Notes: generated by a model from the letters alone, not told the origin. A stretch of 27,037 nt of DNA from a bacterium (GCA_041497675.1 JBGQGY010000039.1:1-27037), one strand, 5' to 3'. Positions 8,579-27,037 are shown, counted from the first letter of the stretch. Numbers and translations are program-made.

Positions 8579-9564
8579 ATACGGCGTTCGGCCAGCCCGG
8601 TCTTGATGAAGAGCCACGGCGCGATCCACACGACCCCCACCGCCAGCAGGGCGTACCGCACGTAACGGAACACCAGACCCACCACCAGCGGGTCGCGCGG
8701 GAACACCGCGGCCAGACCAAACCGCAGCACCGCCACGACGAGCAGCCCGACGACCAGCCGCGCCGCGCGGATCCGCCACGCCCCACCGGGGCTGAACCGG
8801 GCAGAGCGCCGCATGAGCGCCAGCCCGACACCGGCGCCAAAGACCACGCCGACGCTGCCGACCGGCCCGTCCAGGCTGCGCGGATCGTATGCCCGCTTCG
8901 CATCTGCTGGGGGCGCCCCGGCGGTGGCCTGAGCGGCCCAACCCGGCGGATCGGCAACGTCGGCAATCGCGGCGCGCACGCCGAGGGTCACCCCGAGCAT
9001 GAGGATCGAGACCCCAAGCGCCGCGAGGATCTGTACACGCATCGGGCGGGATCCAAACCAGCCGGCGGCGCCAGGTTCGACGCGGCGGTAGACCACGAGG
9101 ACGACCGTGCCGATCACCCATCCCGCCAGGACATCCTGAGGAAAGTGCACACCGAGATACATCCGCGAGAGAGAGATGCCCACGATGACCAGCACTGCGG
9201 CGATCATCGCCCACGGGGCGCCGACCACGCGCGCCAGCGTCGGCCAGATCGCGGCAGCGTTCTGGGCGTGGCCGGACGCCAGACCGTACCCCGGTTCCAG
9301 GCTGAGGGCCTTCACGCGCGCGTCGACCCAGAAGGGACGCGGGGCGTGCACGGCCCACTTGACCACGCCGTTGACGAAGTCGGAGCCGACCAGGATCGCC
9401 AGCACCCGAAGCCCGAGTGCCGCATCAACGCACCAGTACAGGAAGGGAACGAAGGCCGAGAAGAACATTTCATCGCCGAAGAACGATAGCGCGCGCATCA
9501 CACCGTCCAGCGCCGGGCTGAACCGTTGGAGCGTGAGTACCCAATCCACTCCCGGCCACGACAT
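8575..9564 (-). CDS. PAP2-family membrane phosphatase
   Basis: C1 KWAVHAPRP, C2 ASGH and C3 SRMYLGVHFPQD motifs; multiple TM segments. Confidence 0.92.
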   Translation of the reverse strand: MSWPGVDWVLTLQRFSPALDGVMRALSFFGDEMFFSAFVPFLYWCVDAALGLRVLAILVGSDFVNGVVKWAVHAPRPFWVDARVKALSLEPGYGLASGHAQNAAAIWPTLARVVGAPWAMIAAVLVIVGISLSRMYLGVHFPQDVLAGWVIGTVVLVVYRRVEPGAAGWFGSRPMRVQILAALGVSILMLGVTLGVRAAIADVADPPGWAAQATAGAPPADAKRAYDPRSLDGPVGSVGVVFGAGVGLALMRRSARFSPGGAWRIRAARLVVGLLVVAVLRFGLAAVFPRDPLVVGLVFRYVRYALLAVGVVWIAPWLFIKTGLAERRI

Positions 9565-11916: not shown

Positions 11917-13512
11917 TTACTGCTTCACCCACACGTCTTCGTAGATGATCCCACCGAAGTAGTCGAGTCGGAGGTTTTCCAGTCGTCCGCCGGCCGCAAA
12001 CATAAGCCAGTCGGTCAGGATCGGGATAACGATGGCCTTTTGCAAAATCATCACCTGCGCCTGCTTAACCATGTCTAGCCTGCGGGAAGCGTTCATCGTC
12101 GTGTCCGCGCGGTCCAGTGCCGTGTCCAACTCGGAGTCAGCGTAGAGCTGCCGCCAGCCCGGCGTCTTGAACAGCAGCGAGAGGATGTTTGCCTCCGGCC
12201 AGGTCCACCTCATTAGGTCGAAGTCGAACTGCGCTTTGGGCATCTCGGCAGACATCGTGCCGAAGTCGGTCACCCTGACGTCGACGTCGATGCCGACGTC
12301 CTTCAGGTTGGCCTGGATGATCTCGCATCCGCGCTTGACGGTCTCAAAACCCGAATACGTCCAACAGCTGAACTTGGCCGCCCGCCCGCCGTTCTCTCTC
12401 ACACGCGTGGCCGGGTTGACCCGCCAGCCCAGCTCATCGAGCATCGTCGCGGCCTTCCGCAGGTCAAACCCGATGCCGTACTGTTTGCCGATCTTGTCGT
12501 CCCAACCCGCGACGCCCACCGGGATCGGGTTCAAATTCAGGGTGGCGAAGCCACCCCAGGCGCCCTCGACGATCGATTTTTTATCGATCGCCCACCCGAC
12601 CGCGGCGCGAAACTTCGGGTTGTCAAACGGGGGCCGCTTGTAGTTGAACTCCACGAACACGAAGTTGAGCGCGTCCTTCTTGACGGCCGTCTTGAATCGT
12701 TTGTCGTTGAGGAATCGGTCGGCCGACTCGCGGGTGAGCGGGATGACGTCGAGTTCCCCGGTCTCCATGGCCGCGATGCGCGTACCGACGGCGGGCACCA
12801 CCTTGAGGATGATCCCCGACACGTGCACGGGCCCCTTGTTCTGCACGTCCTCGCGAAACTGCTGGTACTCGGGGTTGCGCGCCAGGACGATCGACGACCC
12901 GGCCACCCACGTCTCGAACTTGAACGGCCCTGTCCCTACGGGATTACGCCCGTAGTCCTTACCGTACTTCCGCACCGCGGCGGGCGACACGATGCCCGCA
13001 TACGACGTCGTCAGGTTCGTGAAGAACGGCGCGAAGGGTTTTTCCAGGGTGAACTGGACGGTCGTGTCATCGAGGGCTTTGACGTCCTTCACCTCGTTGA
13101 ACTGGGACCTGGCCGGCGCGGCCGTGGCCGGATCGAGAAGCCGCTTGAAGGTGAACTCCACCGCCTGCGCGTTGAAGGGCGTCCCATCGTGGAACTTGAT
13201 GCCGGTCCGCAGTTTGAACGTGACGACCTTCTGGTCCTGGCTCACGGTCCACGAGCTGGCCAGCCGGCCTGCGGGCAGACCCTGCTGATTGATGTACACC
13301 AGCCGGTCGTAGATGAACCCCTGGACACCGCTCGCCGTCGCGGAGACCGTGGCGTGCGGGTCAAGCGAATCGGGGTCTTCACCCAGCACGAGCCGCAGCG
13401 TGCCGCCTCTCCGGATCTCTTGCGCGGCGGATTGGCCTGTGAGCCACCCGGGCCCGACGAGCAAACTCGCGAGCACGATCGCAGCGGCGAGGACGTACCA
13501 CCGGCGCTTCAT
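11917..13512 (-). CDS. ABC transporter substrate-binding protein, family 5 (DppA/OppA-like)
   Basis: Start MKRRWYVLAAAIV at 13512 with an AGAGGAGGG RBS; signal peptide; RGGTL, PDSLDPH, IYDRLV, LRTGIKFHDGTPFNA, PVGTGPFK. Confidence 0.94.
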   Translation of the reverse strand: MKRRWYVLAAAIVLASLLVGPGWLTGQSAAQEIRRGGTLRLVLGEDPDSLDPHATVSATASGVQGFIYDRLVYINQQGLPAGRLASSWTVSQDQKVVTFKLRTGIKFHDGTPFNAQAVEFTFKRLLDPATAAPARSQFNEVKDVKALDDTTVQFTLEKPFAPFFTNLTTSYAGIVSPAAVRKYGKDYGRNPVGTGPFKFETWVAGSSIVLARNPEYQQFREDVQNKGPVHVSGIILKVVPAVGTRIAAMETGELDVIPLTRESADRFLNDKRFKTAVKKDALNFVFVEFNYKRPPFDNPKFRAAVGWAIDKKSIVEGAWGGFATLNLNPIPVGVAGWDDKIGKQYGIGFDLRKAATMLDELGWRVNPATRVRENGGRAAKFSCWTYSGFETVKRGCEIIQANLKDVGIDVDVRVTDFGTMSAEMPKAQFDFDLMRWTWPEANILSLLFKTPGWRQLYADSELDTALDRADTTMNASRRLDMVKQAQVMILQKAIVIPILTDWLMFAAGGRLENLRLDYFGGIIYEDVWVKQ

Positions 13513-13543
13513 GGTTGTTCCCTCCTCTGTCACGTCTCTTGGC

Positions 13544-13574
13544 GAGCATTCGACATGGCAGGAGGCGCCCCCTG
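13544..13574 (-). promoter_or_regulatory. Candidate alternative-sigma (sigma-H-like) promoter for the peptide ABC operon
   Basis: Minus strand CAGGG-N18-GAATGCTC. Confidence 0.55.
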
Positions 13575-13593
13575 GCAGGCTAAGTAAGAGCGC

Positions 13594-15003
13594 ATGACCG
13601 ACCACGCCACGCGAAGAGCCATCGCGCACGCCGTCAAGATCGTTGCCCCGTGGATCGAGTACAAGAGGGCCCTGGCACGGGTCCCCGCCGTCTCGGTGGG
13701 AATCGTCCACGAAGATCAGATAATCTTTGCCAACGGATATGGCTTCGCGAACGTCGCGAAGCGGACGCGGGCGACCGAGACGACCTGCTATCGGATCGCT
13801 TCGATTTCGAAGACGATCACCGCGACGGCCGCCCTCCAACTGGCGGAACGGGGCGCCCTGCAACTCGATGACCGGGTCCAGACGTTTCTCCCGTGGTTCC
13901 GGTCAACGAAGGACGCCGGTCTGGCGCGAATCACACTCCGCCACCTGCTCACGCACATGGCCGGCATCGAGCGGGACGGCAACACGGCGCACTGGGAGCA
14001 CCGCCGGTTTCCGACGTTGGCGCAGATCCAAGACCACGTTCGAGAGGGCATCGCGGTCTTTCGCCCGTTGGAAAGCTTCAAGTACTCAAACCTCGGCTAC
14101 GCCATCGCCGGCCAGGTCATCGCGGCCGCGAGCGGGCAACCATACGAACGGTACGTCGAGGAGCGTGTCGTCCACAGACTCGGCCTGACGCATACCAGCC
14201 CAACACTGCCCGCCCGCGTGCGCGGGCGACTCGCCCTCGGGTACGACCGGGATCTCCCCTCGAAACCTCGCGCCGCCCTGCCGCACGCCGAGACGCGCGC
14301 GATGGCGGCGGCAACTGGTTTCTCGTCCAACGTCCTCGACCTGTGCGCGTACATGTCGGCCCAGTTCCTGGGCAATGCCACCCTGCTGTCCGATGAGAGC
14401 AAGCGGGAGATGCAGCGCGTCCACTGGATGAACAAGAAGACCGACCATCACTACGGCATTGGGTTTGACCTCTGGAAGGTGGACGATACGCTGATCGTGG
14501 GACACGGCGGCGGCTTCCCTGGGTTCATCACGCGGATCGGGATGGATCCCGAGAGGAAGATCGGGGTGGCGGTGCTGACGAACGCGCTCGACCCCCTGGC
14601 CGGCACGCTGGCGAACGGCATCCTCTCCACGATCGGCTACTTCGTCAGGCACGATGCGAAATTTCGTGCGTCGCGGAGACGGGCGCCGAACCTGGCGAGA
14701 TATCAGGGACGGTTCTTCTCGACGTGGAACGACACGGAAGTGGTCCGCGTCGGCGGCCGGCTGGTCGCCTTCGGGCCGATCAGCGATCGCCCGATGGATG
14801 AGGCGGTCCTCTTCGAGCCCGCCGGCAGGCACCGGTTCAAGATCGGGTCCGGCAGCGAGTTCGGGTATCTTGGTGAGCGTGTGACGTTCGAGTTCGGGCG
14901 GAAGGGACGGCTGACAGGATTGACCTGGGGGCCGAATCGCTCGCGCGCGGTGAGGACGGCCCTGCGCGTATCCAAAGGAGGTGGTGCACCTGGCCGACCG
15001 TGA
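13594..15003 (+). CDS. Serine hydrolase, beta-lactamase/penicillin-binding-protein fold (AmpC-like family, probable peptidase/esterase)
   Basis: SxxK (RIASISKT), LLTHMAG, YSN (FKYSNLGY) and GHGG; extra C-terminal domain; no signal peptide. Confidence 0.88.
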   Translation: MTDHATRRAIAHAVKIVAPWIEYKRALARVPAVSVGIVHEDQIIFANGYGFANVAKRTRATETTCYRIASISKTITATAALQLAERGALQLDDRVQTFLPWFRSTKDAGLARITLRHLLTHMAGIERDGNTAHWEHRRFPTLAQIQDHVREGIAVFRPLESFKYSNLGYAIAGQVIAAASGQPYERYVEERVVHRLGLTHTSPTLPARVRGRLALGYDRDLPSKPRAALPHAETRAMAAATGFSSNVLDLCAYMSAQFLGNATLLSDESKREMQRVHWMNKKTDHHYGIGFDLWKVDDTLIVGHGGGFPGFITRIGMDPERKIGVAVLTNALDPLAGTLANGILSTIGYFVRHDAKFRASRRRAPNLARYQGRFFSTWNDTEVVRVGGRLVAFGPISDRPMDEAVLFEPAGRHRFKIGSGSEFGYLGERVTFEFGRKGRLTGLTWGPNRSRAVRTALRVSKGGGAPGRP

Positions 15004-16077: not shown

Positions 16078-19000
16078 GTGTCAGGACTTCTTTCTCTTCA
16101 TTTGCTCGGCGGCTTCCGGATGGTCGACGGCGATGGGCCTGTTCCCGGCGTTGAGTCGGTTCGGGTCCAATCGCTGGTTGCCCATCTGGTTCTCCATGCC
16201 GGCGATTCGTTTTCCCGCCAGCACCTCGCCGGCTTGTTCTGGCCCGATTCCCCCGACGGTCAGGCGCGGACCAATCTGCGTAAGCTCGTCCTGGAACTCC
16301 GCCGCGCCCTCCCGGACTTCGATCGATATCTCCTCATCGAGGATCGCGCGTTGCAGTGGCGCCGCGACGCGCCGATCTCGGTCGACGTGGTGGAGTTCGA
16401 ACACGCGCTCGCCCACGCGTCGTCACCGGCAGCCCTGGAACAGGTCATCACGCTGTACCGCGGCGATCTCTTGCAGGAGTGTTATGACGATTGGATCATT
16501 CCCGAGCGCGAGCGTCTGCGGCGGTCGTACATGGATGCTCTGGCGCGCCTGGTCGCGGCGCTGGAGGCTCACCGGGACTACGCCGGGGCCATTCGGCACG
16601 CCCGCCGCCTCCTCGATCTCGACCCGCTCCAGGAAGCCACCTACCGCCTGCTGATGCGCCTCCACGCGCTGACCGGCGACCGCACAGGCGCGGTCCGCGT
16701 GTACCATGCCTGTGCCTCGACGCTTCAGCGCGAGCTGGACGTGGTCCCAAGCCCCGAAACCCGCGAGGCATACGAGCGCCTGCTCGCCGCCGATGCCCGT
16801 CCGGCGACGCAACCTCTCGCGGCGCCCCCACTCGTGGGCCGCCATAGCGAGTGGGAACGGCTCCAGACAGCCTGGAGGACCGTCATGGCGGGATCGAGTC
16901 GCGCGGTGATCCTGGGAGGCGAGCCCGGCATCGGCAAGACTAGGCTGACCGAAGACCTGCTGGAGTGGGCGGCCCGCCAAGGCATCGCCAGCCGGCACGC
17001 GCGCTGCTACACGGCCGAGGCCGACCTGGCCTTCGCGCCGATCACGGCGCTGCTGCGTGCGCGATCACTGCCACCCATGACCGCCGTGGTGAAACGCGAC
17101 GTGGCGCGGCTCCTCCCGGAACTTCTTGAGGATGATCCCACGCTGCCGCCACCGGGGCCGCTCACCGAGGCGTGGCAGCGGCAGCACCTGTTCGAGACGA
17201 TGGCGCGCATCCTGCTGGTCGATCAGCCGCTGCTCGTTGTGGTCGACGACCTGCAGTGGTGCGACGAGGAAAGCCTCGAGTTCCTGCACTCGCTGACCCG
17301 CCGCAATCCGCACGCCAGATTGCTGCTCGCCGTAACGATGCGTCCGGAAGAGGTGGACGCGATCCATCCACTACAGCGTGTCGTCCAATCGTGGCGGCAT
17401 GCAGGGATCCTGACCCAGATCGATCTGGGACCGCTCGATGCCGGCGCGACGGCACAGCTCGCCTCGTCGATCGCGGGCGCCGACCTGAGCGCCGAGGCGG
17501 CATCCCGGGTGTTTCGGGATACCGAGGGCAACCCGTTGTTCATCGTTGAACTGGCGCGCGCGGGCCTGGTGGGCACGAGTGATCCGGCCGAGCCGCTGCC
17601 GCCGCAGATTCAAGAAGTCATCCGCACGCGGCTGGCCCACCTCTCGCCGGCGGCCCGAGAACTGGCGGGCGTGGCGTCGGCCGTCGGCCGGTCGTTTACG
17701 TTCCGGCTCCTGGCCGAAGTCGGCGGCATGGAAGAAGATTCGCTGATCCGCTGTCTGGACGAACTCTGGCACCGCAGGATCATCCGCGAGCAGGGAGCCG
17801 AGGCCTATGATTTTACGCACGACAAGGTGCGCGAGGTCGCCTACCGTGTGATGAGCGCAGCCCGGCGGCGCTGGCTCCACCGACAGATCGCACGGGGGCT
17901 GGAAACGCTCTACAAGACCAACCTGGACGACGCCAGCGGGCAGATTGCCACGCACTATGAGCAGGCGGGTATGTCCGACGAGGCGACGCCTTACTACCTG
18001 CGGGCCGCCGAGGCCGCCCGCCGCGTCTCCGCGTACGATGTGGCGATCAACTACTACCACCGCCTGTTGGCGCTGGAGACCGGCGTAGATCGCATCACCG
18101 TGATGCGGCGGCTGGCCGAGATTTGGCAGCGCACCGGCCGCTGGACCGACGCGGAGCAGATCGTTCGACAGGCCCTGGCGCTCGCGCGACAGGCGGCGGA
18201 CACCGAAGCGGAGGCCGAGTGCCAGATCGGCCTCGGGTTTATCCTCCGCCTCCGCGGCTCCTACACGGAGGCGATCAGCTGGTTCGAGCAAGCGCGGCAA
18301 ATATTCGAACATCTCAGCGTCCCGCGCGGGGTCGGCCGGTCGGTCGGGCATCTGGGCATCGTGTACTTCGAATTAGCCGACTACGCGCGCGCGCTGGACT
18401 GTTTCAACCGGCAGTGGCAGATCGCGCAGCGGCTCGGCGATACGGCCGAAATGAGCAACGCGCTGCGGGATATGGGACTCGTCCACTGGGCGCAAGGCGA
18501 CTACACGCAGGCGCTGGCCTGCCACGAGCGCCACTTGCACCTGGCCGCCGAACGCGGCGAACGGTCCGGCATCGAAGGCATGAACGCGTTGAATAACCTG
18601 GGTCTGGTCTATCGGGCCATGGGCGAATACGCCCGGGCGCTGGAATATCATCAGGAGAGCCTGAAGATCGCGCGGGAGATCGGCAACCGTCGTGGTCTGG
18701 CCGTCGCGCTGGGCAACATCGGGATCGACCACGAAGAGCAGGGCGCCTATGTCCGCGCACTCGACTACTTTACTCAGCAACTCGCGATTGCTGAGGAGTT
18801 GGGCGACCGCCGCAGCGTGAGCCACGCCGTCTGGCACGCCGGCAACGTCTATGAAGCCCTGGGTCGATATGCCGAAGCGCTGTGCTACTTCTCCAAACAA
18901 CTGGCGATCGCCACCGAGCTGGACGACCGGCGTGTGGCCGCCATCGCGTTGGGGAACATCGCCCGAGTGCGCGCGGCGCAGGGCTCGGACCAGGACGCGG

Positions 19001-19551
19001 AAAAGCTGTACACGCAGAGCCTGCTACTGCTCTCCGCGGTGAATCTTCCGCACTACGTCTGCGAGATGCGCTACCGGCTGGCGGATCTCTACGCCCGCCA
19101 GGGACGTTTCGCCGACGCCCACGCCTCGGCCACCGACGCACTGCACACCGCCACCCGGCTCAAGCGGACGCCCATCCAATTCGCCGCCGAGTTGCTCAAC
19201 GTCCACGCCCGAGTGCACCTGGGTCAGATTTCGCGGGAGCAGGCGGAAGTCGACTTCCTCGGACTCCTCGTGCGTTATCCGGACCCTCGGCACCAGGCCG
19301 CAGTGCACTACGAGCGGTGGCGGTTGATGGGGGCCGAAGAACCCCGCAGGCTTGCCGCAGACTTGTATCGCACGCGCTCTGCCGGCATCGACCGCATCGA
19401 ATGTCGACGACGCTACGCCGAGTTGACCGGCAATGGGGTGCAGGACTCACCGGATTTGCCGCCGATCCCGGGCGTTCTCCCCTCTGTGCCCCCTGACCTG
19501 GACCATGTCTTGAAGCGCGCGGGGCACCTGCTGCGGCCCACCGTCTCATGA
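16078..19551 (+). CDS. AfsR/SARP-family transcriptional activator: winged HTH + BTAD + STAND/AAA ATPase + TPR array
   Basis: LHLLGGF, SRQHLAGLFWPD..ARTNLR (wHTH); VDV.EFE, LYRGDLL, DPLQE..YR.LMRL, LQRELDV.PSPET (BTAD); LVGR, Walker A GEPGIGKT, Walker B VVVDDLQWCD, TEGNPLF, FTHD; about 9 TPR-like ~40-aa repeats. Confidence 0.92.
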   Translation: MSGLLSLHLLGGFRMVDGDGPVPGVESVRVQSLVAHLVLHAGDSFSRQHLAGLFWPDSPDGQARTNLRKLVLELRRALPDFDRYLLIEDRALQWRRDAPISVDVVEFEHALAHASSPAALEQVITLYRGDLLQECYDDWIIPERERLRRSYMDALARLVAALEAHRDYAGAIRHARRLLDLDPLQEATYRLLMRLHALTGDRTGAVRVYHACASTLQRELDVVPSPETREAYERLLAADARPATQPLAAPPLVGRHSEWERLQTAWRTVMAGSSRAVILGGEPGIGKTRLTEDLLEWAARQGIASRHARCYTAEADLAFAPITALLRARSLPPMTAVVKRDVARLLPELLEDDPTLPPPGPLTEAWQRQHLFETMARILLVDQPLLVVVDDLQWCDEESLEFLHSLTRRNPHARLLLAVTMRPEEVDAIHPLQRVVQSWRHAGILTQIDLGPLDAGATAQLASSIAGADLSAEAASRVFRDTEGNPLFIVELARAGLVGTSDPAEPLPPQIQEVIRTRLAHLSPAARELAGVASAVGRSFTFRLLAEVGGMEEDSLIRCLDELWHRRIIREQGAEAYDFTHDKVREVAYRVMSAARRRWLHRQIARGLETLYKTNLDDASGQIATHYEQAGMSDEATPYYLRAAEAARRVSAYDVAINYYHRLLALETGVDRITVMRRLAEIWQRTGRWTDAEQIVRQALALARQAADTEAEAECQIGLGFILRLRGSYTEAISWFEQARQIFEHLSVPRGVGRSVGHLGIVYFELADYARALDCFNRQWQIAQRLGDTAEMSNALRDMGLVHWAQGDYTQALACHERHLHLAAERGERSGIEGMNALNNLGLVYRAMGEYARALEYHQESLKIAREIGNRRGLAVALGNIGIDHEEQGAYVRALDYFTQQLAIAEELGDRRSVSHAVWHAGNVYEALGRYAEALCYFSKQLAIATELDDRRVAAIALGNIARVRAAQGSDQDAEKLYTQSLLLLSAVNLPHYVCEMRYRLADLYARQGRFADAHASATDALHTATRLKRTPIQFAAELLNVHARVHLGQISREQAEVDFLGLLVRYPDPRHQAAVHYERWRLMGAEEPRRLAADLYRTRSAGIDRIECRRRYAELTGNGVQDSPDLPPIPGVLPSVPPDLDHVLKRAGHLLRPTVS

Positions 19552-19576
19552 ACCCTCCGCGGCTAGGCCTCTGCCA

Positions 19577-19609
19577 GGAACGCTTGCGGAACGGCGCCCG
19601 TGGTACAAG
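19577..19609 (+). promoter_or_regulatory. Candidate SARP-dependent promoter: GGAACG direct repeat plus extended -10
   Basis: GGAACG at 19577-19582 and 19588-19593 (11-bp period), then TG-G-TACAAG at 19601-19609; GAGGTG RBS before ATG 19641. Confidence 0.55.
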
Positions 19610-19640
19610 ACCATCATCGCAGTATCAGTGAGGTGAGCCG

Positions 19641-20624
19641 ATGTCCGGAGCCGGTCTCCTGTTCGTCTCCGCGGTGATCACCATTGTGCCGGTTCTCATC
19701 TATATCTGGGTCCTGTGGGTGATTGACCGGTACGAGAAAGAGCCCCTGTCGCTGCTTGGCGTCGCCCTCTTGGGGGGTGCCGTGGTCGCCCCGGCTCTCA
19801 CGGTGATCGTCGAAAGACTGTTGGGGTTGTCGAGCTCGATCTTTCCTGCGCTCTTCCAGATCTATCCGGTCGTCCGCCCAAACCTGGCAGGGGCCGTCAT
19901 AGAGGAGCTGGCAAAAGGCGCGGTCATCCTCGGCGCCTACCACTTTCTGCGGAGCGAGTTCGACGATACCCTTGACGGAATCGTCTACGGCGCCACGGTC
20001 GGCGCGGGGTTCGCCCTGGCCGAGTCCGTGAGTTTTCTCCGTGAACTGGCGCCCATGGCCGCGAGCGCCAACTTCGACCCTGGGCTTTTCTTCGCCATCT
20101 TCATATCCGGCCTGACCCACTGCGTTTTTGGCGCCACGTTCGGCGCCACCCTCGGCTATGTCCGCGAAACCTCCCCGGCGGGCGGTATGCGACTGGCCAT
20201 GCCTGTAGGCGGGCTGGTCGCCGCCGTGCTCTACCACGTGGGATACGTGGCCGCAGGCGCGGCGGGTTTGGCGGGCATCGGCGGCACGCCTGGGATGCTC
20301 CTCGGTCTCGGCCGGCGGGTCGCGGACTGGGCCGGTCTGGTCATGCTGGCCTTCATCGTGGTGTGGGCGTGGTCGCGGGAACGCGGCATTCTCCGGTGGG
20401 GGCTGGCCGACGAAACCGCGACGGGCGCGATCACCGCCGACGAGTTGTCCGCATTGACTGGGACCGGCCGGTTGGCTGGGGCCAAGTCACTGCGTGAAGC
20501 GCTGGCCGAATTGGCGTTTGCAAAGTGGCGGGCATCTCGAGGGTTCGGCAGCGACGAAGAGGTCAAACGCCAGCGTCAGCGTGTGCTCCAGCTCAGGTCG
20601 GCCAAAGGGGGTGAGCGCCGATGA
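19641..20624 (+). CDS. PrsW-family intramembrane protease, paralog 1 (last motif degenerate)
   Basis: IDRYEKEP, EExxK (IEELAK), DGIVYG..VG.GFALAE, LTH; the final HxxxN motif reads HVGYV. Confidence 0.88.
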   Translation: MSGAGLLFVSAVITIVPVLIYIWVLWVIDRYEKEPLSLLGVALLGGAVVAPALTVIVERLLGLSSSIFPALFQIYPVVRPNLAGAVIEELAKGAVILGAYHFLRSEFDDTLDGIVYGATVGAGFALAESVSFLRELAPMAASANFDPGLFFAIFISGLTHCVFGATFGATLGYVRETSPAGGMRLAMPVGGLVAAVLYHVGYVAAGAAGLAGIGGTPGMLLGLGRRVADWAGLVMLAFIVVWAWSRERGILRWGLADETATGAITADELSALTGTGRLAGAKSLREALAELAFAKWRASRGFGSDEEVKRQRQRVLQLRSAKGGERR

Positions 20625-21238
20625 GCACGCCTGTCGCCCCCGCGAATCCGAACCGCAAGCTCCTCATCGGGGCGGGTGTTGGGTGCGGCTGTCTGTCCCT
20701 CATCATCGCGATCGTCGCCCTGATCTTGATCTTCTCGTCGCTGGGACGAACGCAGAGCCAGCCGGTGCCGCAGCCTCAACCACAGCCCGTGCAGCCGCAA
20801 CCTGGGCCGCAGCCCGCGCCACAGCCAGCTCCGCAGCCAGCTCCGCAGCCTGCCCCGCGGCCCGGCCCGCAAGCCGAGGGCATCGACGGCCTGAAGGTGC
20901 AGATGGCAATGGTCAAAGTCCAGGGAGACGCGGACAACGCGCGGCCGGGTGCTCCCACCGATACATATGGTCAAGGAGAAATTGCCGGCGCGCTTGGCAA
21001 CTTCGTGGAGGTGCGTGGCACACACGAGATACACATTTACTGGTTCAAGGTCGAAGGCGACAAACCATCGCTTGTGGCCAAACCCTATGTGGCGACTATC
21101 TCGGATAATATGCAGGGCAAGCCTTTCTTCTTCCGTCTCTCGGGGCTCGTGGCGGGCGACTTTATCTTCGCGATCCTGAAGAACACGGGCCCGGACCAGT
21201 TCCAGCGCGTCGCGATCCGACGGTTCCGTGTCCAGTAA
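20621..21238 (+). CDS. Single-pass membrane protein with Pro/Gln-rich stalk and unknown C-terminal domain
   Basis: ATGA coupling to prsW-1; short basic N-tail, TM LLIGAGVGCGCLSLIIAIVALILIF, PQPA repeats, then a ~120-aa beta-rich-looking domain. Confidence 0.8.
   Translation: MSTPVAPANPNRKLLIGAGVGCGCLSLIIAIVALILIFSSLGRTQSQPVPQPQPQPVQPQPGPQPAPQPAPQPAPQPAPRPGPQAEGIDGLKVQMAMVKVQGDADNARPGAPTDTYGQGEIAGALGNFVEVRGTHEIHIYWFKVEGDKPSLVAKPYVATISDNMQGKPFFFRLSGLVAGDFIFAILKNTGPDQFQRVAIRRFRVQ
20759..20872 (+). repeat. Coding tandem repeat (QP / PQPA units)
   Basis: Imperfect 12-nt units such as CCGCAGCCAGCT, with synonymous third-position variation. Confidence 0.85.
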
Positions 21239-21264
21239 AGTCATTCACCACAGGAGGTGATCGC

Positions 21265-22476
21265 ATGAGCCCAGGTCGTGGTCCCGCACTGCCCAACATC
21301 ACGCTCCCGTCAGGAAACCTATCTGATCGGGGCATCCGCCATCTCATGCTCGCTGTTTTTGGAGGGGTGTTCTTCCTCTTCACGATCGGCACTCTCATCC
21401 TCTTAGGGACCAAATTCCCGCTGGGCACTCTCATTGTTTGCGGCCTTGCCGCCGTCCTGCCCGTGCCGATCTACGCGGCACTGATCCTGTGGCTGGACCG
21501 ATATGAAAAAGAACCGGCGTTTCTTCTGGTGTCGGCCTTCCTCTGGGGCGCGGTCGTCGCGACATTCGTCTCATACTTCATCAACACGGGCGCGGCCGTA
21601 GTGCTTCACGGCATCCTCGGACCGAGGCTGGCGGGGGCGCTGGCGCCTGCGTTATCGGCGCCGATCGTCGAGGAGACCTCTAAGGGGTTTGCCCTCCTAC
21701 TCCTCTACTTCCTGGCAAAGAACGAGTTCAACGACGTCGTGGACGGCATCGTGTACGGCGCGCTCGTTGGGCTGGGTTTCGCCATGGTCGAAAACATCAT
21801 CTACTTCGGCCGGGTCTACACAGCCGGAGGGGCGGCTGGGCTGGGGTACCTCTTTGTCATGCGCGCCGTCTTTAGCGGGCTGATCCACCCGCTCTTCACC
21901 GGCTGCACGGGAGCCGGACTTGGGTACTCGCGAGAAACGACCAGCGGCGTCCGAAAGCTCGCGGCCCCGGTCATCGGTTACTTCGCCGCCATGATGCTTC
22001 ACGCGTTGTGGAACGGGACCGGCGGACTCCTCGACCTGAGCGGTGTTCAGATGAGCCCCATGGTTGCGCTGTTCGTGCTCGTCCCGGGGATGATGCTGAT
22101 CTACGGCGTCCCCGCGATGGCGGTGCTCGTCCTTCTGGCGAAGGCGGGATGGAAGCGAGAGATCGCCGTGATCCAGGAGTTTCTGAAGGACGAAGTCAAA
22201 CGCGGGACCGTCTCGGAAGGCGAGTACAACCTGCTGACCAACACCCGCGAACGCTTTCGCCACCTCATGGGGGCGTTTACGAAGCACGGGCCGTCCGGAT
22301 GGCTTGCGCTGCGCTCGCTGTATGAGATGGAAGTCGACCTGGCGTTCCGTAAGTCCCAGGAGGCCCGCGGAGAGAAACTCCCGTCGTTCGATGTCGTCGT
22401 CTCCGTGGATGGGTTCAGGGAGCGCATCGGTCAAACCCGCAAGCGGCTCTCCGATATCGGCGTCGCGACAGCGTAA
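21265..22476 (+). CDS. PrsW-family intramembrane protease, paralog 2 (all motifs intact)
   Basis: LDRYEKEP, APIVEETSK, DGIVYG..VGLGFAMVEN, LIHPLFT and LHALWN; CAGGAGGTGA RBS. Confidence 0.93.
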   Translation: MSPGRGPALPNITLPSGNLSDRGIRHLMLAVFGGVFFLFTIGTLILLGTKFPLGTLIVCGLAAVLPVPIYAALILWLDRYEKEPAFLLVSAFLWGAVVATFVSYFINTGAAVVLHGILGPRLAGALAPALSAPIVEETSKGFALLLLYFLAKNEFNDVVDGIVYGALVGLGFAMVENIIYFGRVYTAGGAAGLGYLFVMRAVFSGLIHPLFTGCTGAGLGYSRETTSGVRKLAAPVIGYFAAMMLHALWNGTGGLLDLSGVQMSPMVALFVLVPGMMLIYGVPAMAVLVLLAKAGWKREIAVIQEFLKDEVKRGTVSEGEYNLLTNTRERFRHLMGAFTKHGPSGWLALRSLYEMEVDLAFRKSQEARGEKLPSFDVVVSVDGFRERIGQTRKRLSDIGVATA

Positions 22477-22494
22477 CGGGAGGAGGCAACAGAC

Positions 22495-24090
22495 GTGTCC
22501 CAGAGAGGTTCCAGTACTGTCATCATCCTGCTGGCCATTGTGATCGTCCTATTGCTGGGCGCAGCCGGCGTGGGAGCCTTCATCATCCTGCGCTCGCAGC
22601 AGCGCCCGACGGGCGGTCCGGCAGGCCCCGTGCCGGTCCAACCACCGGTGAACCCTCCACAACCGGTGGCGTCTCCGGCGCAGCCGTTCCAGCCTCCGCA
22701 GCCGCCGGCGCCCCCGGCCGCAAGCGATGTGATCAGCAAGCTCGAGCTGGCCGCCACATCGCCGACGGACGTGGCTCAGGCAGAGCCGGTAAACCTCAAG
22801 ATGACCTTCGTGTTCGGCGGCAGTGAAAAAACCAAAGTCGAGGCCCAGCTGGCCTGGCGCGCCGGCGATGATCAGCTCGAGTACGGTAAGGTTTTTGGGT
22901 ATGAGGCCGTTCCCGGCCCCAACACCATTGACGGGTGGACCTTCCGCTCTCACCCGGACAGCCCGCCGGGAACGAAGTACGCCATGTACGCGGTGATCAG
23001 AACCGCGGGCAAGATCTTCATTTCTCAGACCGCCGTCCCGGTGACCGTCAGAGGATCTGCTGCTCCACCACAGCCGCCGACCGCACCGGCCGCAAGCGAT
23101 CTGGTCCGCGATCTGCAGATCACCGCGGTCTCACCCACCGAAGCCCCGCCCGGCGAGGCCGTCAAGCTCAAGATGACCTTTGGCTTCAACGGGCCTGAGA
23201 AGACCAAGGTTGCCGCGCAACTGGCCTGGAAGATCGGCGACGCGGAATTGACCTATGGCAAGGAGTACAACGAGGACGTCGTCCCCGGTCAGAACATCAG
23301 CGAGGGTTGGAGCTTCAAGACTGCGCCGGATACCGCCAACGGTACCAAGTTCACGATGTTTGCGGTGGTCAAGGCCGGTGGTAAGACCTTCATCTCGCAG
23401 ACAGGCGTTACGATCACGGTCACGACGTCCGCGCAGCCGGCGCCGCAGCCGCCTCCTGCACCGGTCCCCGCGCCACCACCGGGACCAGTCCCCGTTCCGC
23501 CGCCTCCCGGACCGGCCCCCGCTCCACCGCCGGGCCCGGCCCCCGCTCCCGGACCGGTACCGCGACCGGCACCGGCGCCGGTCGAGATGCAGTCCTACCG
23601 CGACCCAGGCGGTCGGTTCATGATCGACTACCCCGTCGGGTGGCGCACCCAGCTGCTCCAGGGTGGATTCATGGCCTTCTACAAAGATCATCCCGAGGAA
23701 GGCATTTCGTTTATTCATAATCCCTGGGGCGTTCTGCGCGGGGCTTTCGGCGGTCGCGAAGTCGCCCAACTGTTCATGGACAATGCCCACCGAAAATATC
23801 CGGATATGCAGGTGCTCGGTCAGGACATCAAGCAGCTCGCCCGGAACGGGCCGATTCGCACCGACGCGGCAATCCTAGAGGTCGCCTGGACGAACCTGCG
23901 GGGGGAGCGCATGCGCGGGCGCATTGCGATCGTGGCCACCAACGTGCAAATGGCTGGGATGCCAAACGAAACGACGCTTCACTATTGGGCGTATCAGGCC
24001 CCCGAAGTCGCCTGGGACTCGATGCAATCGATATTTATCCAGATGTACCAGAGCTGGAGTGGAACAGCATACGTCACCTCGCCACCGTAG
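22495..24090 (+). CDS. Membrane-anchored Pro-rich protein with two tandem ~112-aa repeats and a C-terminal PsbP/DcrB-like domain
   Basis: GGGAGGAGG RBS; N-terminal TM; three Pro-rich linkers; duplicated domain; the C-terminal domain begins YRDPGGRFMIDYPVGW, a PsbP-like pattern. Confidence 0.8.
   Translation: MSQRGSSTVIILLAIVIVLLLGAAGVGAFIILRSQQRPTGGPAGPVPVQPPVNPPQPVASPAQPFQPPQPPAPPAASDVISKLELAATSPTDVAQAEPVNLKMTFVFGGSEKTKVEAQLAWRAGDDQLEYGKVFGYEAVPGPNTIDGWTFRSHPDSPPGTKYAMYAVIRTAGKIFISQTAVPVTVRGSAAPPQPPTAPAASDLVRDLQITAVSPTEAPPGEAVKLKMTFGFNGPEKTKVAAQLAWKIGDAELTYGKEYNEDVVPGQNISEGWSFKTAPDTANGTKFTMFAVVKAGGKTFISQTGVTITVTTSAQPAPQPPPAPVPAPPPGPVPVPPPPGPAPAPPPGPAPAPGPVPRPAPAPVEMQSYRDPGGRFMIDYPVGWRTQLLQGGFMAFYKDHPEEGISFIHNPWGVLRGAFGGREVAQLFMDNAHRKYPDMQVLGQDIKQLARNGPIRTDAAILEVAWTNLRGERMRGRIAIVATNVQMAGMPNETTLHYWAYQAPEVAWDSMQSIFIQMYQSWSGTAYVTSPP
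22714..23421 (+). repeat. Intragenic domain duplication (22714-23049 and 23086-23421, 372-nt period)
   Basis: Ungapped alignment of 112 aa with about 60 identities by hand count, including LKMTF, EKTKV.AQLAW, YGK, VPG.N...GW.F, GTK and FISQT. Confidence 0.92.
23434..23580 (+). repeat. Coding Pro-rich low-complexity repeat (PPPGPAPA-like)
   Basis: QPAPQPPPAPVPAPPPGPVPVPPPPGPAPAPPPGPAPAPGPVPRPAPAP. Confidence 0.85.
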
Positions 24091-24122
24091 GTCGAACGAC
24101 ACGAAGCGCAGGTGAAGTTATC

Positions 24123-24338
24123 ATGGAGGAAGAGGGACGCAAGCCGTCGCAACTGTTCACCCTCAGGGTGTGGACCGAAGCCGTGGGTGAGAGTCAGACC
24201 GAGTGGCGCGGCAAGGTCCAGCACATTGCGACGGGCGAGGCTCGATATTTCCGCAGCTGGCAGGCGCTGGTGGAGTTCCTCGAGCGCCGCATGAGCGAGG
24301 GTGCAGATGACCTGTCGGGCTCCAACAAGCGCGCCTGA
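24123..24338 (+). CDS. Small hypothetical protein (71 aa)
   Basis: ATG at 24123 after AGGTG; sequence MEEEGRKPSQLFTLRVWTE...WRGKVQHIATGEARYFRSWQALVEFL. It fills the gap between two operon genes. The ORF-track start at 23985 overlaps the upstream gene and is unlikely. Confidence 0.78.
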   Translation: MEEEGRKPSQLFTLRVWTEAVGESQTEWRGKVQHIATGEARYFRSWQALVEFLERRMSEGADDLSGSNKRA

Positions 24339-24353
24339 CCGCGGGACGTTCGC

Positions 24354-25169
24354 ATGAGGGCAGGTACTCCGCTGCCCCGCCGGAGCATCTGGATCGCCCA
24401 GGCACTCACTATTACCGGGCTTATTCTCTACGTGCTGCTGGTCCAGGTCCTGGCCCCCGCCCTCCAGGAACCGGGGCGCAGGACCGGCGCGGCCATCGGT
24501 CTGCTGCTGGCGCTGGTGCCCGCCGTGCTGTGGCTTGTTCTGTTCTACGTTCAGGATGCACGAGAACCCGAGCCACTTGGCTACGTCGTGCGCGTAGCGC
24601 TCGCGGGAGGGGTTCTCGGTGGGGCGATCGTACTGCCCGTCCTGCAGCGGGTCTTCGCCTCAGCAGGCTGGGTCAACGCCGGCCCGCTCGTCGGATTGTT
24701 GGGATCCATTCTCATCATCGGAGCGCTGCAAGAGTTCTGTGTGTATCTAGCGGTTCGCTTTACGGTCTACGAGGTCAGCGAGTTCGACGAGGTCGCCGAC
24801 GGCGTCACCTATGGCACGGCGGCGGGCGTTGGGTTGGCGACGATACTGAACCTGTGGCTGGTCATGGCCGGCCCGAGCATCAACCCGGTGCCGATGGCCA
24901 TCCGCATGGTCGTGATCACCCTCGGACACTCGGCCTTCGGCGGCGTCCTCGGGTATTTCCTCGGGCTGGCGAAGATCCACCACCAGCCTCAACGCGCGGT
25001 GCAGGGGTTCGTGCTGGCCGCTGTGCTCAACGGGCTGTTCACGTACTTCCTGCGGGAGGTCACGCAGAGCGGGCTCACCTACAAACCGTGGAACGGGCTG
25101 GTGCTGGCGACGGCCGTTGCGGTGATCGTCACGCTCGTCCTCGTGAGGCGCGAGCATGCGAAGGCTTGA
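24354..25169 (+). CDS. PrsW-family protein, paralog 3 (catalytic motifs degenerate)
   Basis: QDAREPEP, EFDE..DGVTYG.AAGVG and LGHSAFG..LGYFLG show the family. EExxK has become QEFCV, FxxxE has become LATIL, and HxxxN has become NGLFT. Confidence 0.82.
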   Translation: MRAGTPLPRRSIWIAQALTITGLILYVLLVQVLAPALQEPGRRTGAAIGLLLALVPAVLWLVLFYVQDAREPEPLGYVVRVALAGGVLGGAIVLPVLQRVFASAGWVNAGPLVGLLGSILIIGALQEFCVYLAVRFTVYEVSEFDEVADGVTYGTAAGVGLATILNLWLVMAGPSINPVPMAIRMVVITLGHSAFGGVLGYFLGLAKIHHQPQRAVQGFVLAAVLNGLFTYFLREVTQSGLTYKPWNGLVLATAVAVIVTLVLVRREHAKA

Positions 25170-25713
25170 TCTTCCCGTCTGGATCGCCGCGGTCGTGATG
25201 CTTGGGGCAGGTTGGGGCCTTATCAAATCCGCGGACGCCAGGATGATCGGCTTTGCCGACCCGCAGGGGTCGCTGCGTCTCCAGTATCCCGCCGGCTGGT
25301 TGCGGGTTCCGGGATCCACCGCGCTGCTTGAAATCCAGGATCCACTGTCCGGGGCCCCGGTGGCGACGACCCTGCTGGCGGAGCGCGCCCCCCGGCCCGC
25401 CGACCAAACGCTGGATCAGATCGCCCGCGAGGGAACGTTCGACCGGAGTCAGCGGATGGTCATGTACCGGGTCCTCCGCCAGCGAGCCATCCGCGTGGGC
25501 GGTCATGACGCGGTCGCGGTAGATTACGCATTCGTCGCCGACCCCCACCAGTCGGTCCCGGAGGCGGAACGTCTGCCTGTCGTGATGCGCGGCACCCAAG
25601 TGGTCGTCGCCACCGACAAGACGGTCTACCGCATCGACCTGCGGGCCTCGGCGGGCGTCATCGGTCGCGCGCGGGTCCAGTTCGAGCGGATCCTCCGCGA
25701 GGTGCAACTGTGA
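25156..25713 (+). CDS. N-terminally anchored or exported PsbP/DcrB-like protein
   Basis: 14-nt overlap with prsW-3; hydrophobic N-terminus; FADPQGSLRLQYPAGW, VGGHDAV and a C-terminal FERILREV helix fit the PsbP-like pattern. Confidence 0.72.
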   Translation: MRRLDLPVWIAAVVMLGAGWGLIKSADARMIGFADPQGSLRLQYPAGWLRVPGSTALLEIQDPLSGAPVATTLLAERAPRPADQTLDQIAREGTFDRSQRMVMYRVLRQRAIRVGGHDAVAVDYAFVADPHQSVPEAERLPVVMRGTQVVVATDKTVYRIDLRASAGVIGRARVQFERILREVQL

Positions 25714-26867
25714 GAGGCCGATCGATCTGGCCGCGAGTGGTCGTGTGGTCGCTGAGTGTCGCCCTGGGTTTGGGGCTGTGTGCGGGCTCGTCGACGGCGC
25801 AGATCAACGTCGCGATGATCGAGCAGGGAATAGCCCGCACGGTCATGCTTGGGCTCCTGAGACGTGACGAAAAGGGATCGTACAGGGAGTTTTCGAGTTG
25901 CTCCGGCTCGTTTGTCACGCCGAAGAGCTTGATTCTCACCGCTTCGCACTGTGTCCGGGCCAACGAAGATATCCAAAAGTTCGGGATCAAGAAGGGGCAG
26001 CTCTACAATCCTGAGGGCTTTTCACTCGTATACATCAACGTCCCAAACCAGGTCAAGCCTGTGCTCTTCCTGTGGGCGAAGTTTGTGGCGGACCAAGTAG
26101 ACCTAGACGTCGCCCTCATACGTGCGGAAACGGTGATTGGGTCTGGGGGAATGCAGGCGCTGCCTCCGGATTTCAACGTGCCGTATGTCCCGATCGGCGA
26201 CTCTGACACGGTGCGGATCGGCGAACCGGTGGTGTTGATGGGGTACCCTAGCGTCGGGGGCGACACGATCACCGTCACGCGCGGCTACGTCACCGGCTTC
26301 ACTGTTGACTCACAGGGACGGAAGTTCGAGATGAAAACCGACCTCGGTGCGCCGGGATTCAGCGGCGGGCCGGTCATCAACGAACGCAGCGAACAGGTCG
26401 CGGTGCACCAGAGCTCCCAGGTCGAGCCGGATCGAGCCGCGCGGTCTGGCCGCGCGACGCTGAGCAGGCGGCTACCGGCCGAGTGGGCCCAGTATCTGAA
26501 AGACGGAACGTCGACCGCGCAGCCGGTATCCCCCGCGGGGGCGGCGAGTGTCATCCTCCAGGGGCGCGTCGTCGACGGCGCGACCGGAGCCGGGATCCCC
26601 GGAGCCGGCGTGTGGGTGCTTGCCCCCGGTTCGTCGCTAGAGGACCCGACCAGCAAACAGGTCGTCGCGAGCGCCCTCACCGACGGCAATGGCGTCTTTC
26701 AGGCGAAACCGCCGGTTCTTCGAGGATCGTCCTACCCGGTTATTGTGCTCGCCACCGGGTATGGCCGGGTCGCCGGCTACGTAGAGATTCCCGCCCGGGG
26801 TCCGCAGACCGCGCCCGGCAGTTCGGAGGTGGCCATCGTCGGGACGATCACGCTTCAGCGGCAGTAG
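25710..26867 (+). CDS. Exported trypsin-like (S1) serine protease with a C-terminal carboxypeptidase-regulatory-like beta-sandwich
   Basis: GTGA coupling; signal peptide; CSGSFV, ILTASHCV (His), DLDVAL (Asp), IGDSD, GYP, PGFSGGP (Ser); tail ILQGRVVDGATGAGIPGA...TDGNGVF. Confidence 0.9.
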   Translation: MRGRSIWPRVVVWSLSVALGLGLCAGSSTAQINVAMIEQGIARTVMLGLLRRDEKGSYREFSSCSGSFVTPKSLILTASHCVRANEDIQKFGIKKGQLYNPEGFSLVYINVPNQVKPVLFLWAKFVADQVDLDVALIRAETVIGSGGMQALPPDFNVPYVPIGDSDTVRIGEPVVLMGYPSVGGDTITVTRGYVTGFTVDSQGRKFEMKTDLGAPGFSGGPVINERSEQVAVHQSSQVEPDRAARSGRATLSRRLPAEWAQYLKDGTSTAQPVSPAGAASVILQGRVVDGATGAGIPGAGVWVLAPGSSLEDPTSKQVVASALTDGNGVFQAKPPVLRGSSYPVIVLATGYGRVAGYVEIPARGPQTAPGSSEVAIVGTITLQRQ

Positions 26868-26900
26868 GCACGCGCAATTCATCGACGAGGAGGTGCGTTC

Positions 26901-27037
26901 ATGAACACACCACCAAGGTGGCTGGCCGGTGCGGTCCTGTTGCTGTTCGTGCTGGCGACTGTGGCAGCGCCCGCCCACGCCCAGTTTCCCTTCCAGCCCG
27001 CACCGCAACCTGCGCCGCAACCCGCTCCACAACCCGC
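26901..27037 (+). CDS. Exported Pro-rich protein, N-terminal part (runs off the window)
   Basis: Not in the ORF track. GAGGAGGT RBS, ATG 26901, MNTPPRWLAGAVLLLFVLATVAAPAHA-QFPFQPAPQPAPQPAPQP (AxA signal peptidase site, then QPAP repeats). Confidence 0.85.
   Translation, partial: MNTPPRWLAGAVLLLFVLATVAAPAHAQFPFQPAPQPAPQPAPQP

Follow-up and report, generated by a model that had tools for sequence, protein, structure and literature searches.

The function of PrsW membrane proteases is understood from one example, YpdC of Bacillus subtilis, which acts as the site-1 protease of RsiW, with a similar role reported for Clostridium difficile in the accessible portions of the literature. According to the available part of PMC12943098, the B. 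subtilis protein carries the motifs E75E76xxK79, F110xxxE114, H138 and H175xxxD/N179, and its function is lost in E75A/E76A and in H175A, while the available part of PMC4602095 places EExxK and HxxxD in the modelled or predicted active site. Here we analysed a bacterial contig of 27,037 nucleotides (nt) over its whole length (JBGQGY010000039.1 of GCA_041497675.1, hereafter the window), in which a ten-gene cluster encodes three members of this family (PrsW1, PrsW2 and PrsW3) together with a large regulator, membrane-anchored partners and a secreted serine protease. The families that make up the cluster are known, whereas their widely conserved arrangement, centred on a probable pseudoprotease, is undescribed. 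The full-text literature searched gave no description of a gene set combining PrsW with a PsbP fold, with DUF350 or with a pseudoprotease role, nor any such set in Chloroflexi, in agreement with a first-pass annotation of the window that knew of no characterised system with this composition.

On gene content, the cluster is a mosaic of separable modules, namely a regulator (REG) with a small protein (S71), a triad (PrsW3, P3 and TRYP), the lineage-specific pairs PrsW1-P1 and PrsW2-P2, and downstream envelope genes, because the triad occurs without the pairs (alone on contig C21 of the same genome, and in Anaerolineae) and REG and S71 recur with different cargo. The interpretation given in the first-pass annotation is thus upheld in part only, its single dedicated triple-PrsW apparatus not being borne out. 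The explanation that we favour, with slightly less than even confidence, would be an envelope-proteolysis operon built from such modules. The features of the cluster are the following (lengths in amino acids, aa).

REG, 16078-19551, + strand: SARP-like (BTAD), STAND NTPase (AAA_16) and TPR regulator, 1157 aa
Putative REG operator, 19577-19593, + strand: hexamer direct repeat with 11-bp spacing
PrsW1, 19641-20624, + strand: PrsW-family membrane protein with a C-terminal cytoplasmic extension
P1, 20621-21238, + strand: single-pass protein whose ~13-aa tail and membrane helix are followed by a Pro-rich stalk and a ~120-aa domain that matches no known family
PrsW2, 21265-22476, + strand: canonical-looking PrsW-family protease with a C-terminal cytoplasmic domain
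P2, 22495-24090, + strand: single-pass protein that has two ~115-aa repeats and Pro-rich linkers and ends in a PsbP-like domain
S71, 24123-24338, + strand: 71-aa cytoplasmic protein
PrsW3, 24354-25169, + strand: triad-type PrsW relative with an altered active site
P3, 25156-25713, + strand: single-pass protein with a PsbP/DcrB-fold ectodomain
TRYP, 25710-26867, + strand: exported trypsin-fold serine protease with a CarboxypepD_reg-like tail
P4 (5' part), 26901-27037, + strand: start of the gene for a secreted "domain C" protein, covering its signal peptide and Pro-rich linker and continuing on contig C169

The PrsW3-P3-TRYP triad

All three PrsW genes score above the Pfam PF13367 cut-off of 23.5 bits (84.3 for PrsW1, 166.9 for PrsW2 and 49.5 for PrsW3) and under the 225-bit cut-off of NF033739, the NCBIfam equivalog of B. 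subtilis PrsW (42.3, 57.5 and 83.5 bits, respectively). The catalytic signature (EExxK, the motif-3 His and HxxxD/N) is present in PrsW2, which is canonical at all four motif positions, and partly present in PrsW1, which keeps EExxK and the His of motifs 3 and 4 and has Val in place of the motif-4 Asn/Asp in 3/3 orthologues. It is absent from PrsW3, a protein with eight hydrophobic segments by hydropathy, where E-E is replaced by Q-E, the Lys by Val and the motif-4 His by Asn. The replacements of the first Glu and of the motif-4 His recur among 22 triad-type PrsW proteins, with the first Glu being Gln in 18 and Glu in 1, and the motif-4 His being Asn in 17 and His in 2, as well as in 30 further proteins from Anaerolineae triads (Gln in 23/29 and Glu in 2 at the first position; at motif 4, 28 have Asn, 2 have Asp and none has His). 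The other PrsW proteins considered (n = 17; PrsW1, PrsW2, the C43 protein and solitary relatives) have the first Glu, the second Glu, the Lys and the motif-4 His in 17/17 cases.

A quick maximum-likelihood tree was built after dropping three rows (L185, partial, and P0105 and P0161, without a Pfam PrsW match). All triad-type rows (49/49) fall on one side of a branch with a Shimodaira-Hasegawa-like approximate likelihood ratio test (SH-aLRT) support of 92. PrsW1 and PrsW2 group with solitary PrsW genes carrying C-terminal domains across a branch of support 100, with PrsW2 among solitary genes of Chloroflexota type, and the three genes of the window thus represent two deep subfamilies in this tree. 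The first-pass annotation had called them three paralogs; this stands as far as family membership goes, but PrsW3 lacks the catalytic signature and the genes are split between the two subfamilies. A fifth PrsW-family gene of the genome, on contig C43 (L113 ~7249-7806), has the canonical Glu-Glu, Lys and His and in this quick tree is a long-branched neighbour of the triad clade.

As judged from these residue patterns, triad-type PrsW proteins, including PrsW3, are probably pseudoprotease scaffolds and hardly working PrsW proteases. A variant catalytic mechanism is possible, because the substitutions of the triad type are themselves conserved. Named members of the P3-family clusters come from Chloroflexota and Anaerolineales and are annotated as "PrsW family intramembrane metalloprotease", a designation that is probably misleading for triad-type proteins. 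By this pattern a large subfamily of PrsW proteins is sharply set apart; its active site is replaced, and its members always occur with a PsbP-fold membrane protein and a secreted protease.

P3 itself has no Pfam match above cut-off, and its family member P0020 matches PsbP_2 with 31.4 bits (cut-off 27 bits). An AlphaFold2 model of P3 based on 63 aligned sequences reached a predicted local distance difference test score (pLDDT) of 95, and its top Foldseek match is the cyanobacterial PsbP structure 2xb3 (E 7e-7, TM-scores of 0.63 for the query and 0.74 for the target), among 45 chains at E <= 0.001 that also include MTC28, LpqN, DcrB, Apa, the EagT6/SciW chaperones and Mog1. Folds of the PsbP type are used for protein-protein binding. 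The P3 family comprises 151 representative clusters at E <= 0.001 in a full-library HMMER search, and 11/15 of its members of at least 360 aa carry an N-terminal Pfam PrsW domain. PrsW3 and P3 form one open frame in genomes G022 and G003, and the two genes overlap by 14 nt in the window. TRYP matches Trypsin_2 (66.9 bits, cut-off 27.6), has an N-terminal hydrophobic segment by hydropathy and a CarboxypepD_reg-like tail (28 bits, under its cut-off), and its His80, Asp133 and Ser218 are invariant in 27/27 aligned sequences.

Searches by order, class and phylum all return the same 94 species genomes, and this agreement places the organism in a small lineage of phylum rank; in public records, several cluster proteins have their closest named relatives under the labels "Armatimonadota" or Chloroflexota. 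P3 orthologues (E <= 1e-12) were found in 7/94 of these genomes, at nine loci, eight of which have all three triad genes while the ninth ends at a contig end. The genome of the window has a second copy of the triad (contig C21, L112 10453-13120; 61% identity for PrsW3, 53% for P3 and 48% for TRYP), which stands alone among housekeeping genes of fatty-acid oxidation and nucleoside metabolism, between those for acyl-CoA dehydrogenase and electron transfer flavoprotein and that for 3-hydroxyacyl-CoA dehydrogenase; the motif-3 His of its PrsW is replaced by Gln. Outside the phylum, a P3-family profile matched 104/301 sampled Anaerolineae genomes, and the triad genes are adjacent in 30/30 of the best Anaerolineae loci, in the order PrsW-P3-protease in 27 and with the protease first in 3. 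The module is therefore spread over about one third of the sampled Anaerolineae genomes and a second phylum. The split PrsW/P3 form followed by a protease with Trypsin_2 and CarboxypepD_reg domains was seen in two Anaerolineales genomes. By gene neighbourhood, PrsW3, P3 and TRYP are one separable module. A complex prediction of PrsW3, P3 and TRYP, with TRYP as the scored partner and without controls, gave a score of 0.00, which counts neither for nor against a complex. In one Anaerolineales triad (G096), a PDDEXK_3 nuclease-family gene (L164 8553-8987, 155 bits) lies between the PrsW3-like and P3-like genes, and the PrsW3-like protein has a Cys-rich, zinc-ribbon-like N-terminus.

These data also bear on a reading in which all three PrsW proteins would be active site-1-type proteases that shed or mature the adjacent partner, with TRYP trimming the products, in one inducible surface-shedding apparatus. 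Each PrsW gene is followed by that of a type-II single-pass partner, often with translational coupling (overlaps of 4 and 14 nt), the motifs are complete in PrsW2 and almost complete in PrsW1, the conserved Q-E-x-x-K of the triad type could support catalysis, and trimming by other peptidases after PrsW cleavage is known for RsiW. We nevertheless consider this reading fairly unlikely, as stable PrsW::P3 fusions are common, the occurrence of the triad without the other two pairs does not fit one indivisible apparatus, and the motif-4 His, needed by B. subtilis PrsW according to the available part of PMC12943098, is kept in 0/30 and 2/22 triad-type proteins. The fusions could instead suggest PrsW-dependent export and release in the manner of Zhang et al. 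2012, where the PrsW body would be both conduit and releasing peptidase, and PsbP-like and other ectodomains would be released to the surface or the medium. In the available part of that source (PMC3482391), an N-terminal PrsW is fused to variable C-terminal domains, Chloroflexi included, and in the present cluster several paralogous secreted proteins are also encoded downstream. This is improbable, since the domain fused to PrsW3 is a conserved PsbP-fold adaptor and not a variable toxin, P3 has its own membrane helix, the releasing peptidase would be without its catalytic His, and Pfam scans of the window and contig C169, at the thresholds applied, and PADLOC revealed no family of toxins or immunity proteins. 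PADLOC gave only generic TPR and trypsin-domain matches, by which a known defence system is not indicated. A pseudoprotease scaffold associated with P3 and TRYP thus remains the reading that we prefer for the triad.

REG, S71 and a conserved direct repeat

The first gene of the cluster encodes a protein with BTAD (69.2 bits), AAA_16 (79.8 bits) and TPR_12 (167 bits) domains, all above cut-offs, and readable Walker A and Walker B motifs; an OmpR-type winged helix (Trans_reg_C) scores 17 bits (E 0.006), under its 26.2-bit cut-off. Orthologues with 58-63% identity head the cluster in G022 and G011. Between REG and PrsW1, the repeat GGAACG-N5-GGAACG has its single exact match in the whole window at 19577-19593, 64 nt 5' of the PrsW1 start and 10 nt 5' of the -10-like hexamer TACAAG. 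Direct repeats at about 11-bp spacing at the presumed target promoter, a feature of SARP regulators, are thus present in the sequence. A DNA alignment indicates that a hexamer repeat at this spacing, followed by a TAC(A/C)A element, is kept upstream of PrsW1 in three genera (G000, G011 and G022). An AACGC-type repeat with the same spacing was found downstream of REG orthologues in 7/12 other loci (G022, G011 and 5/10 from Anaerolineae), where it sits between the REG stop and the next genes. The 156.7 kb scanned contain 9 such hits, whereas 200 shuffles gave 1.09 on average and 5 at most. A relaxed search allowing up to two mismatches gave counts at chance level, so that only exact or conserved copies are informative. 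A general scan for promoters and terminators was likewise at chance level (1 promoter-like site versus 1.3 expected, and 9 terminator-like sites versus 5.4). G022 has one more gene here (L098 17335-17967), which follows REG, precedes the promoter with the repeat and is absent from the window; its product is a single-pass protein whose beta-rich domain matches no known family.

S71 has no Pfam family and is the best conserved gene of the cluster, with 81% identity to its G022 orthologue; in the ESM Atlas it matches unnamed Chloroflexota clusters at 0.90. A profile search found the family in 114/301 sampled Anaerolineae genomes, frequently in multiple copies (a word-index search had given 9 matches for S71 and 5 for domain C, and whole-genome profile searches gave far more). 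Long flanks were obtained for 13 of the 20 best loci (L215-L227), the other seven being mostly on short contigs, two of them with partial REG matches. A REG homologue adjoins S71 on the same strand in 11/13 of these loci, with 29-45% identity and mostly near full length, two being cut by the locus end. It lies 5' of S71 in 10 (within 2.6 kb where the REG end is visible) and 3' in 1. The genes that follow S71 vary, and include those for DUF5122 beta-propellers, surface proteins with CarboxypepD_reg/SdrD_B (Ig-like) domains, astacin, patatin and glyoxalases.

Since REG, S71 and the repeat recur with different cargo, these neighbourhoods indicate that together they are a portable regulatory cassette. 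REG very probably drives the operon, because a SARP-style repeat lies 64 nt upstream of PrsW1 and is conserved after REG orthologues in two phyla. The STAND activator that the first-pass annotation assumed to switch on the operon is therefore retained as very probable. With its SARP-STAND regulator, its 71-aa protein and its 11-bp-spaced repeat, the locus provides a testable unit of regulation in phyla whose transcriptional control is almost unstudied.

The PrsW1-P1 and PrsW2-P2 pairs, the downstream genes and the conservation of the cluster

The window is the entire contig C39 of a draft genome of 272 contigs (G000, completeness 98.6%). From 16078 to the contig end, open reading frames and translations give ten genes, all on the + strand, with frames backed by GC content per codon position. 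The gap between REG and PrsW1 is 89 nt, and the later junctions measure -4, 26, 18, 32, 15, -14, -4 and 33 nt, matching the co-directional, closely packed arrangement first described. The start of P4 is an ATG at 26901, correcting 26902. Pfam matches and hydropathy likewise confirm that each PrsW gene is followed by that of a membrane-anchored partner: P1, P2 and P3 have one N-terminal membrane helix each, preceded by tails of only ~13, ~8 and ~4 residues, respectively, within the limit of about 13 aa given earlier.

P1, whose gene overlaps PrsW1 by 4 nt, has no Pfam family, and its orthologue stands at the same place in G022 (39% identity) and G011. Pro-rich stretches were found in P1 and P2 from hydropathy and proline content; P2 has its membrane helix at residues 9-27 and reaches 62% Pro over 40 aa. 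Its excised C-terminal part gives a full-profile match to PsbP (E 1.8e-4, 22 bits), just under the 23.5-bit cut-off, and the partners of PrsW2 and PrsW3 thus both end in PsbP-like domains. A PDB sequence search returned only proline-rich noise for P2 and zero matches for PrsW2 and the ~15-helix protein described below, and pairwise BLAST gave no match between P1 and P2 or between P1 and the extra G022 protein. Among the 94 genomes, full-length P2 orthologues are present only in G022 (57% identity) and G011 (split over two contigs). More distant relatives of PrsW2 were examined at 80 loci from other phyla (30-42% identity; 5 too near a contig end and 64 with a callable downstream reading frame). 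By tblastn, these loci showed no second PrsW and no homologue of P1, P2, P3, S71 or TRYP, being solitary PrsW genes with unrelated neighbours. In a genome of another family (G029, contig C497, L157), a PrsW1-type gene with 47% identity and the same His-x-Gly-Tyr variant is divergent from a PrsW2-type gene with an N-terminal zinc ribbon, around a luciferase-like oxidoreductase gene; the contig is too short to show partners.

The cluster continues beyond the window, as the final 141 nt of C39 are identical to the initial 141 nt of contig C169. The overlap is bridged by a 2833-nt contig of another public run, which takes in the initial 730 nt of C169 and reaches ~2.1 kb past the start of that contig. 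On C169 the cluster extends ~5.8 kb farther. P4 is completed there, and a tandem of DUF350 membrane proteins is encoded together with a lipoprotein (P5) in which a P2-like repeat is joined to a domain of P4 type. The other products are two further secreted proteins resembling P4, one small exported protein and a protein with ~15 membrane helices (ESM Atlas 0.81 to an unnamed cluster), and a luciferase-like oxidoreductase gene comes next. The two DUF350 proteins, of 95 aa, score 37.2 and 37.7 bits with PF03994 (cut-off 26 bits). Their genes (L111, i.e. C169, 641-928 and 977-1264) are 92% identical at the protein level, and the stretch between them is broken up in contigs of four other runs, probably owing to this repeat.

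The secreted ~150-aa domain C family, to which P4 belongs, has four copies on C169 (L111 5-3516) and two on contig C44 (L121 9566-10713), and in G001, G002 and G011 its genes are interleaved with those of 95-aa DUF350 membrane proteins. A model based on 20 sequences (18 paralogues or orthologues from five genomes and two database proteins) has a pLDDT of 95, with no PDB match in Foldseek at E <= 0.001. VIA-align gave a best Z of 7.8 to the MamB C-terminal domain (80 residues), 6.6 to an alpha-lytic-protease-prodomain-like protein and 5-6 to ring-building motifs; all these likenesses were set aside, their Z values lying in the range that the tool assigns to common arrangements.

Domain scans found no sigma or anti-sigma domain in the window proteins (housekeeping part included), on C169 or in the scanned proteins of the G022 locus, the rest of the genome not having been searched. 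The absence of an extracytoplasmic function (ECF) sigma/anti-sigma pair noted in the window thus extends to the recovered downstream contig, where the first-pass annotation had placed the check for a cognate pair. A conventional regulated proteolysis, in which the sigma and anti-sigma factors are encoded elsewhere and the adjacent partners are bystanders, would be compatible with the 272 contigs of the draft, which leave room for unlinked partners, and in B. subtilis prsW is indeed unlinked to sigW-rsiW. It appears highly improbable in view of these scans and of the conserved adjacency of PrsW and partner, which for P3 goes as far as fusion.

Conservation of the whole set was assessed in related genomes. 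G022 has the order REG-extra gene-PrsW1-P1-PrsW2-P2-S71-TRYP-PrsW3::P3, with the ~15-helix protein and a P4-like protein, and identities are 53-66% for the PrsW genes, P2, P3 and TRYP, 39% for P1 and 81% for S71. G011 has REG-PrsW1-P1-PrsW2-P2, while other contigs carry the C-terminus of P2 followed by S71, the ~15-helix protein and TRYP, as well as a P4/DUF350 array and then PrsW3-P3-TRYP. In G002, of the same genus as the window, a single contig has PrsW3-P3-TRYP-P4-DUF350-DUF350-P5 and further genes at 66-97% identity. The conservation of gene order on which the first-pass annotation had made its proposal depend was therefore found, with the full set kept in two other genera (G022 and G011), a narrow spread. 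As the order is kept in two other genera at 50-66% protein identity, the cluster stands as more than chance. That unrelated envelope genes merely happen to stand behind a regulator would agree with the occurrence of modules apart and with the differing position of TRYP, which precedes PrsW3 in G022 and follows P3 in G000. It has only a very slight probability given the tight spacing and overlaps, the full set in three genera at 39-81% protein identity and the triad in 30/30 Anaerolineae loci.

The first 16 kb of the window contain housekeeping genes, coding for an RNase H-like protein, an acyl-CoA ligase, seryl-tRNA synthetase, parts of peptide ATP-binding cassette (ABC) transport and a protein resembling aminoimidazole ribonucleotide (AIR) synthase. 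On the - strand, 7010-9358 and 11917-13863 hold two SBP_bac_5 solute-binding proteins and two permease genes, separated by an archease gene and a PAP2 gene; no ATPase gene is present in the window.

Proposed mechanism and comparison with known systems

Gene content, conservation, fusions, folds, residue patterns and the repeat are observed features, and the binding, cleavage and activation steps that follow are those we infer. In the envelope-proteolysis operon, REG would act as a cytoplasmic DNA binder of the SARP type, in which a STAND NTPase serves as the switch and the TPR part as the sensor. Once switched on, it would bind the repeat at 19577-19593 and fire a promoter reading from PrsW1 through the cluster end. 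S71 would belong to this regulatory cassette, either as a partner of REG or as an obligatory first-line target. PrsW3 would be a PrsW-derived pseudoprotease, an eight-helix membrane scaffold without the residues that canonical PrsW needs, to which P3 would add a ninth helix and, on the outer face, a PsbP-fold adaptor domain. Catalysis would be provided by the secreted TRYP, docked on or controlled by the PrsW3-P3 platform, or acting on P3. PrsW1 and PrsW2 would each probably cut the neighbouring type-II surface protein near the membrane, and the domain C proteins, the DUF350 proteins and the ~15-helix protein may be further envelope components.

Several observations weigh against this explanation. 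PrsW1 has no motif-4 Asn/Asp, which makes its activity uncertain. In the triad type, Q-E-x-x-K and the Asn show conservation of their own, with the second Glu present in 15/22 and 23/29 proteins, which is not random decay, and the branch uniting this type reaches an SH-aLRT of 92, not 95, in a quick tree only. The pairs PrsW1-P1 and PrsW2-P2 are confined to three genera, G001 (same genus, 91% complete) gave no PrsW2 match, and a comparable partner was found at 0/80 of the distant PrsW2-relative loci, whose downstream reading frames are heterogeneous. Finally, the repeat was not found in 5/12 of the REG loci scanned, and the last letter of the window's copy deviates.

A more specific proposal, which we consider possible though on balance doubtful, is that the PrsW-derived pseudoprotease and P3 would act as the membrane receptor or gatekeeper of a dedicated secreted serine protease, a bacterial counterpart of the eukaryotic pseudoprotease platform. 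In the lineage of the window this module would be placed under a ligand-sensing SARP-STAND activator with S71 and a defined operator, giving an inducible extracellular proteolysis switch of an undescribed kind. If true, it would give monoderm-type or atypical envelopes a novel means of placing an extracellular protease and keeping it under control.

Among known systems, B. subtilis PrsW (MEROPS M82) is the closest for the membrane proteins, given the three genes above the PF13367 cut-off and the complete catalytic motifs of PrsW2, and P1, P2 and P3 share with RsiW an N-in, C-out single-pass topology. The locus differs in that the partner is adjacent or fused, that PrsW3 is without the first Glu and the essential His, that equivalog scores are 42-83 bits versus 225, and that there is no ECF sigma factor and the partners, with tails of ~4-13 aa, have no cytoplasmic anti-sigma domain. 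The absence of that domain and of a sigma factor at the locus rules out the PrsW-RsiW-sigmaW pathway as its identity. With the PrsW polymorphic toxins, as presented in the available part of PMC3482391, the locus shares a PrsW body at the N-terminus to which a C-terminal domain outside the cytoplasm is fused or coupled, and Chloroflexi are listed there. Here, however, that domain is a conserved PsbP fold with its own helix, accompanied by no toxin, immunity gene or RHS repeat, and the peptidase site is altered; this architecture was ruled out on account of the conserved, non-toxin nature of the C-terminal domain.

REG has the BTAD, AAA_16 (NTPase) and TPR architecture of the large SARP/AfsR-type regulators, and a direct repeat spaced by one helical turn lies directly upstream of a -10-like hexamer as in their targets. 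It scores far under the AfsR equivalog cut-off (72 bits versus 1430), is not next to antibiotic biosynthesis genes, is paired with a 71-aa protein and has envelope and secreted proteins as cargo. P3 shares its fold with PsbP, DcrB, LpqN, MTC28 and Mog1, of which MTC28 is a proline-rich secreted mycobacterial antigen, and P2 similarly joins Pro-rich linkers to a PsbP-like end, whereas P3 differs from these proteins in being anchored by an N-terminal helix, coupled or fused to a PrsW relative and always adjoining a serine protease. TRYP is distinct from HtrA, DegP and DegS, an HtrA/DegS identity being ruled out by the missing PDZ domain and by family scores of 16-28 bits versus cut-offs of 408-470. 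In the DegS-RseA system, a trypsin-fold extracytoplasmic protease performs site-1 cleavage at the membrane, and TRYP resembles it by analogy only. In the same way, PrsW3 has no homology to rhomboids and is comparable by analogy alone to the pseudoproteases of the iRhom type, in which an inactive relative of an intramembrane protease serves as the platform for another protease.

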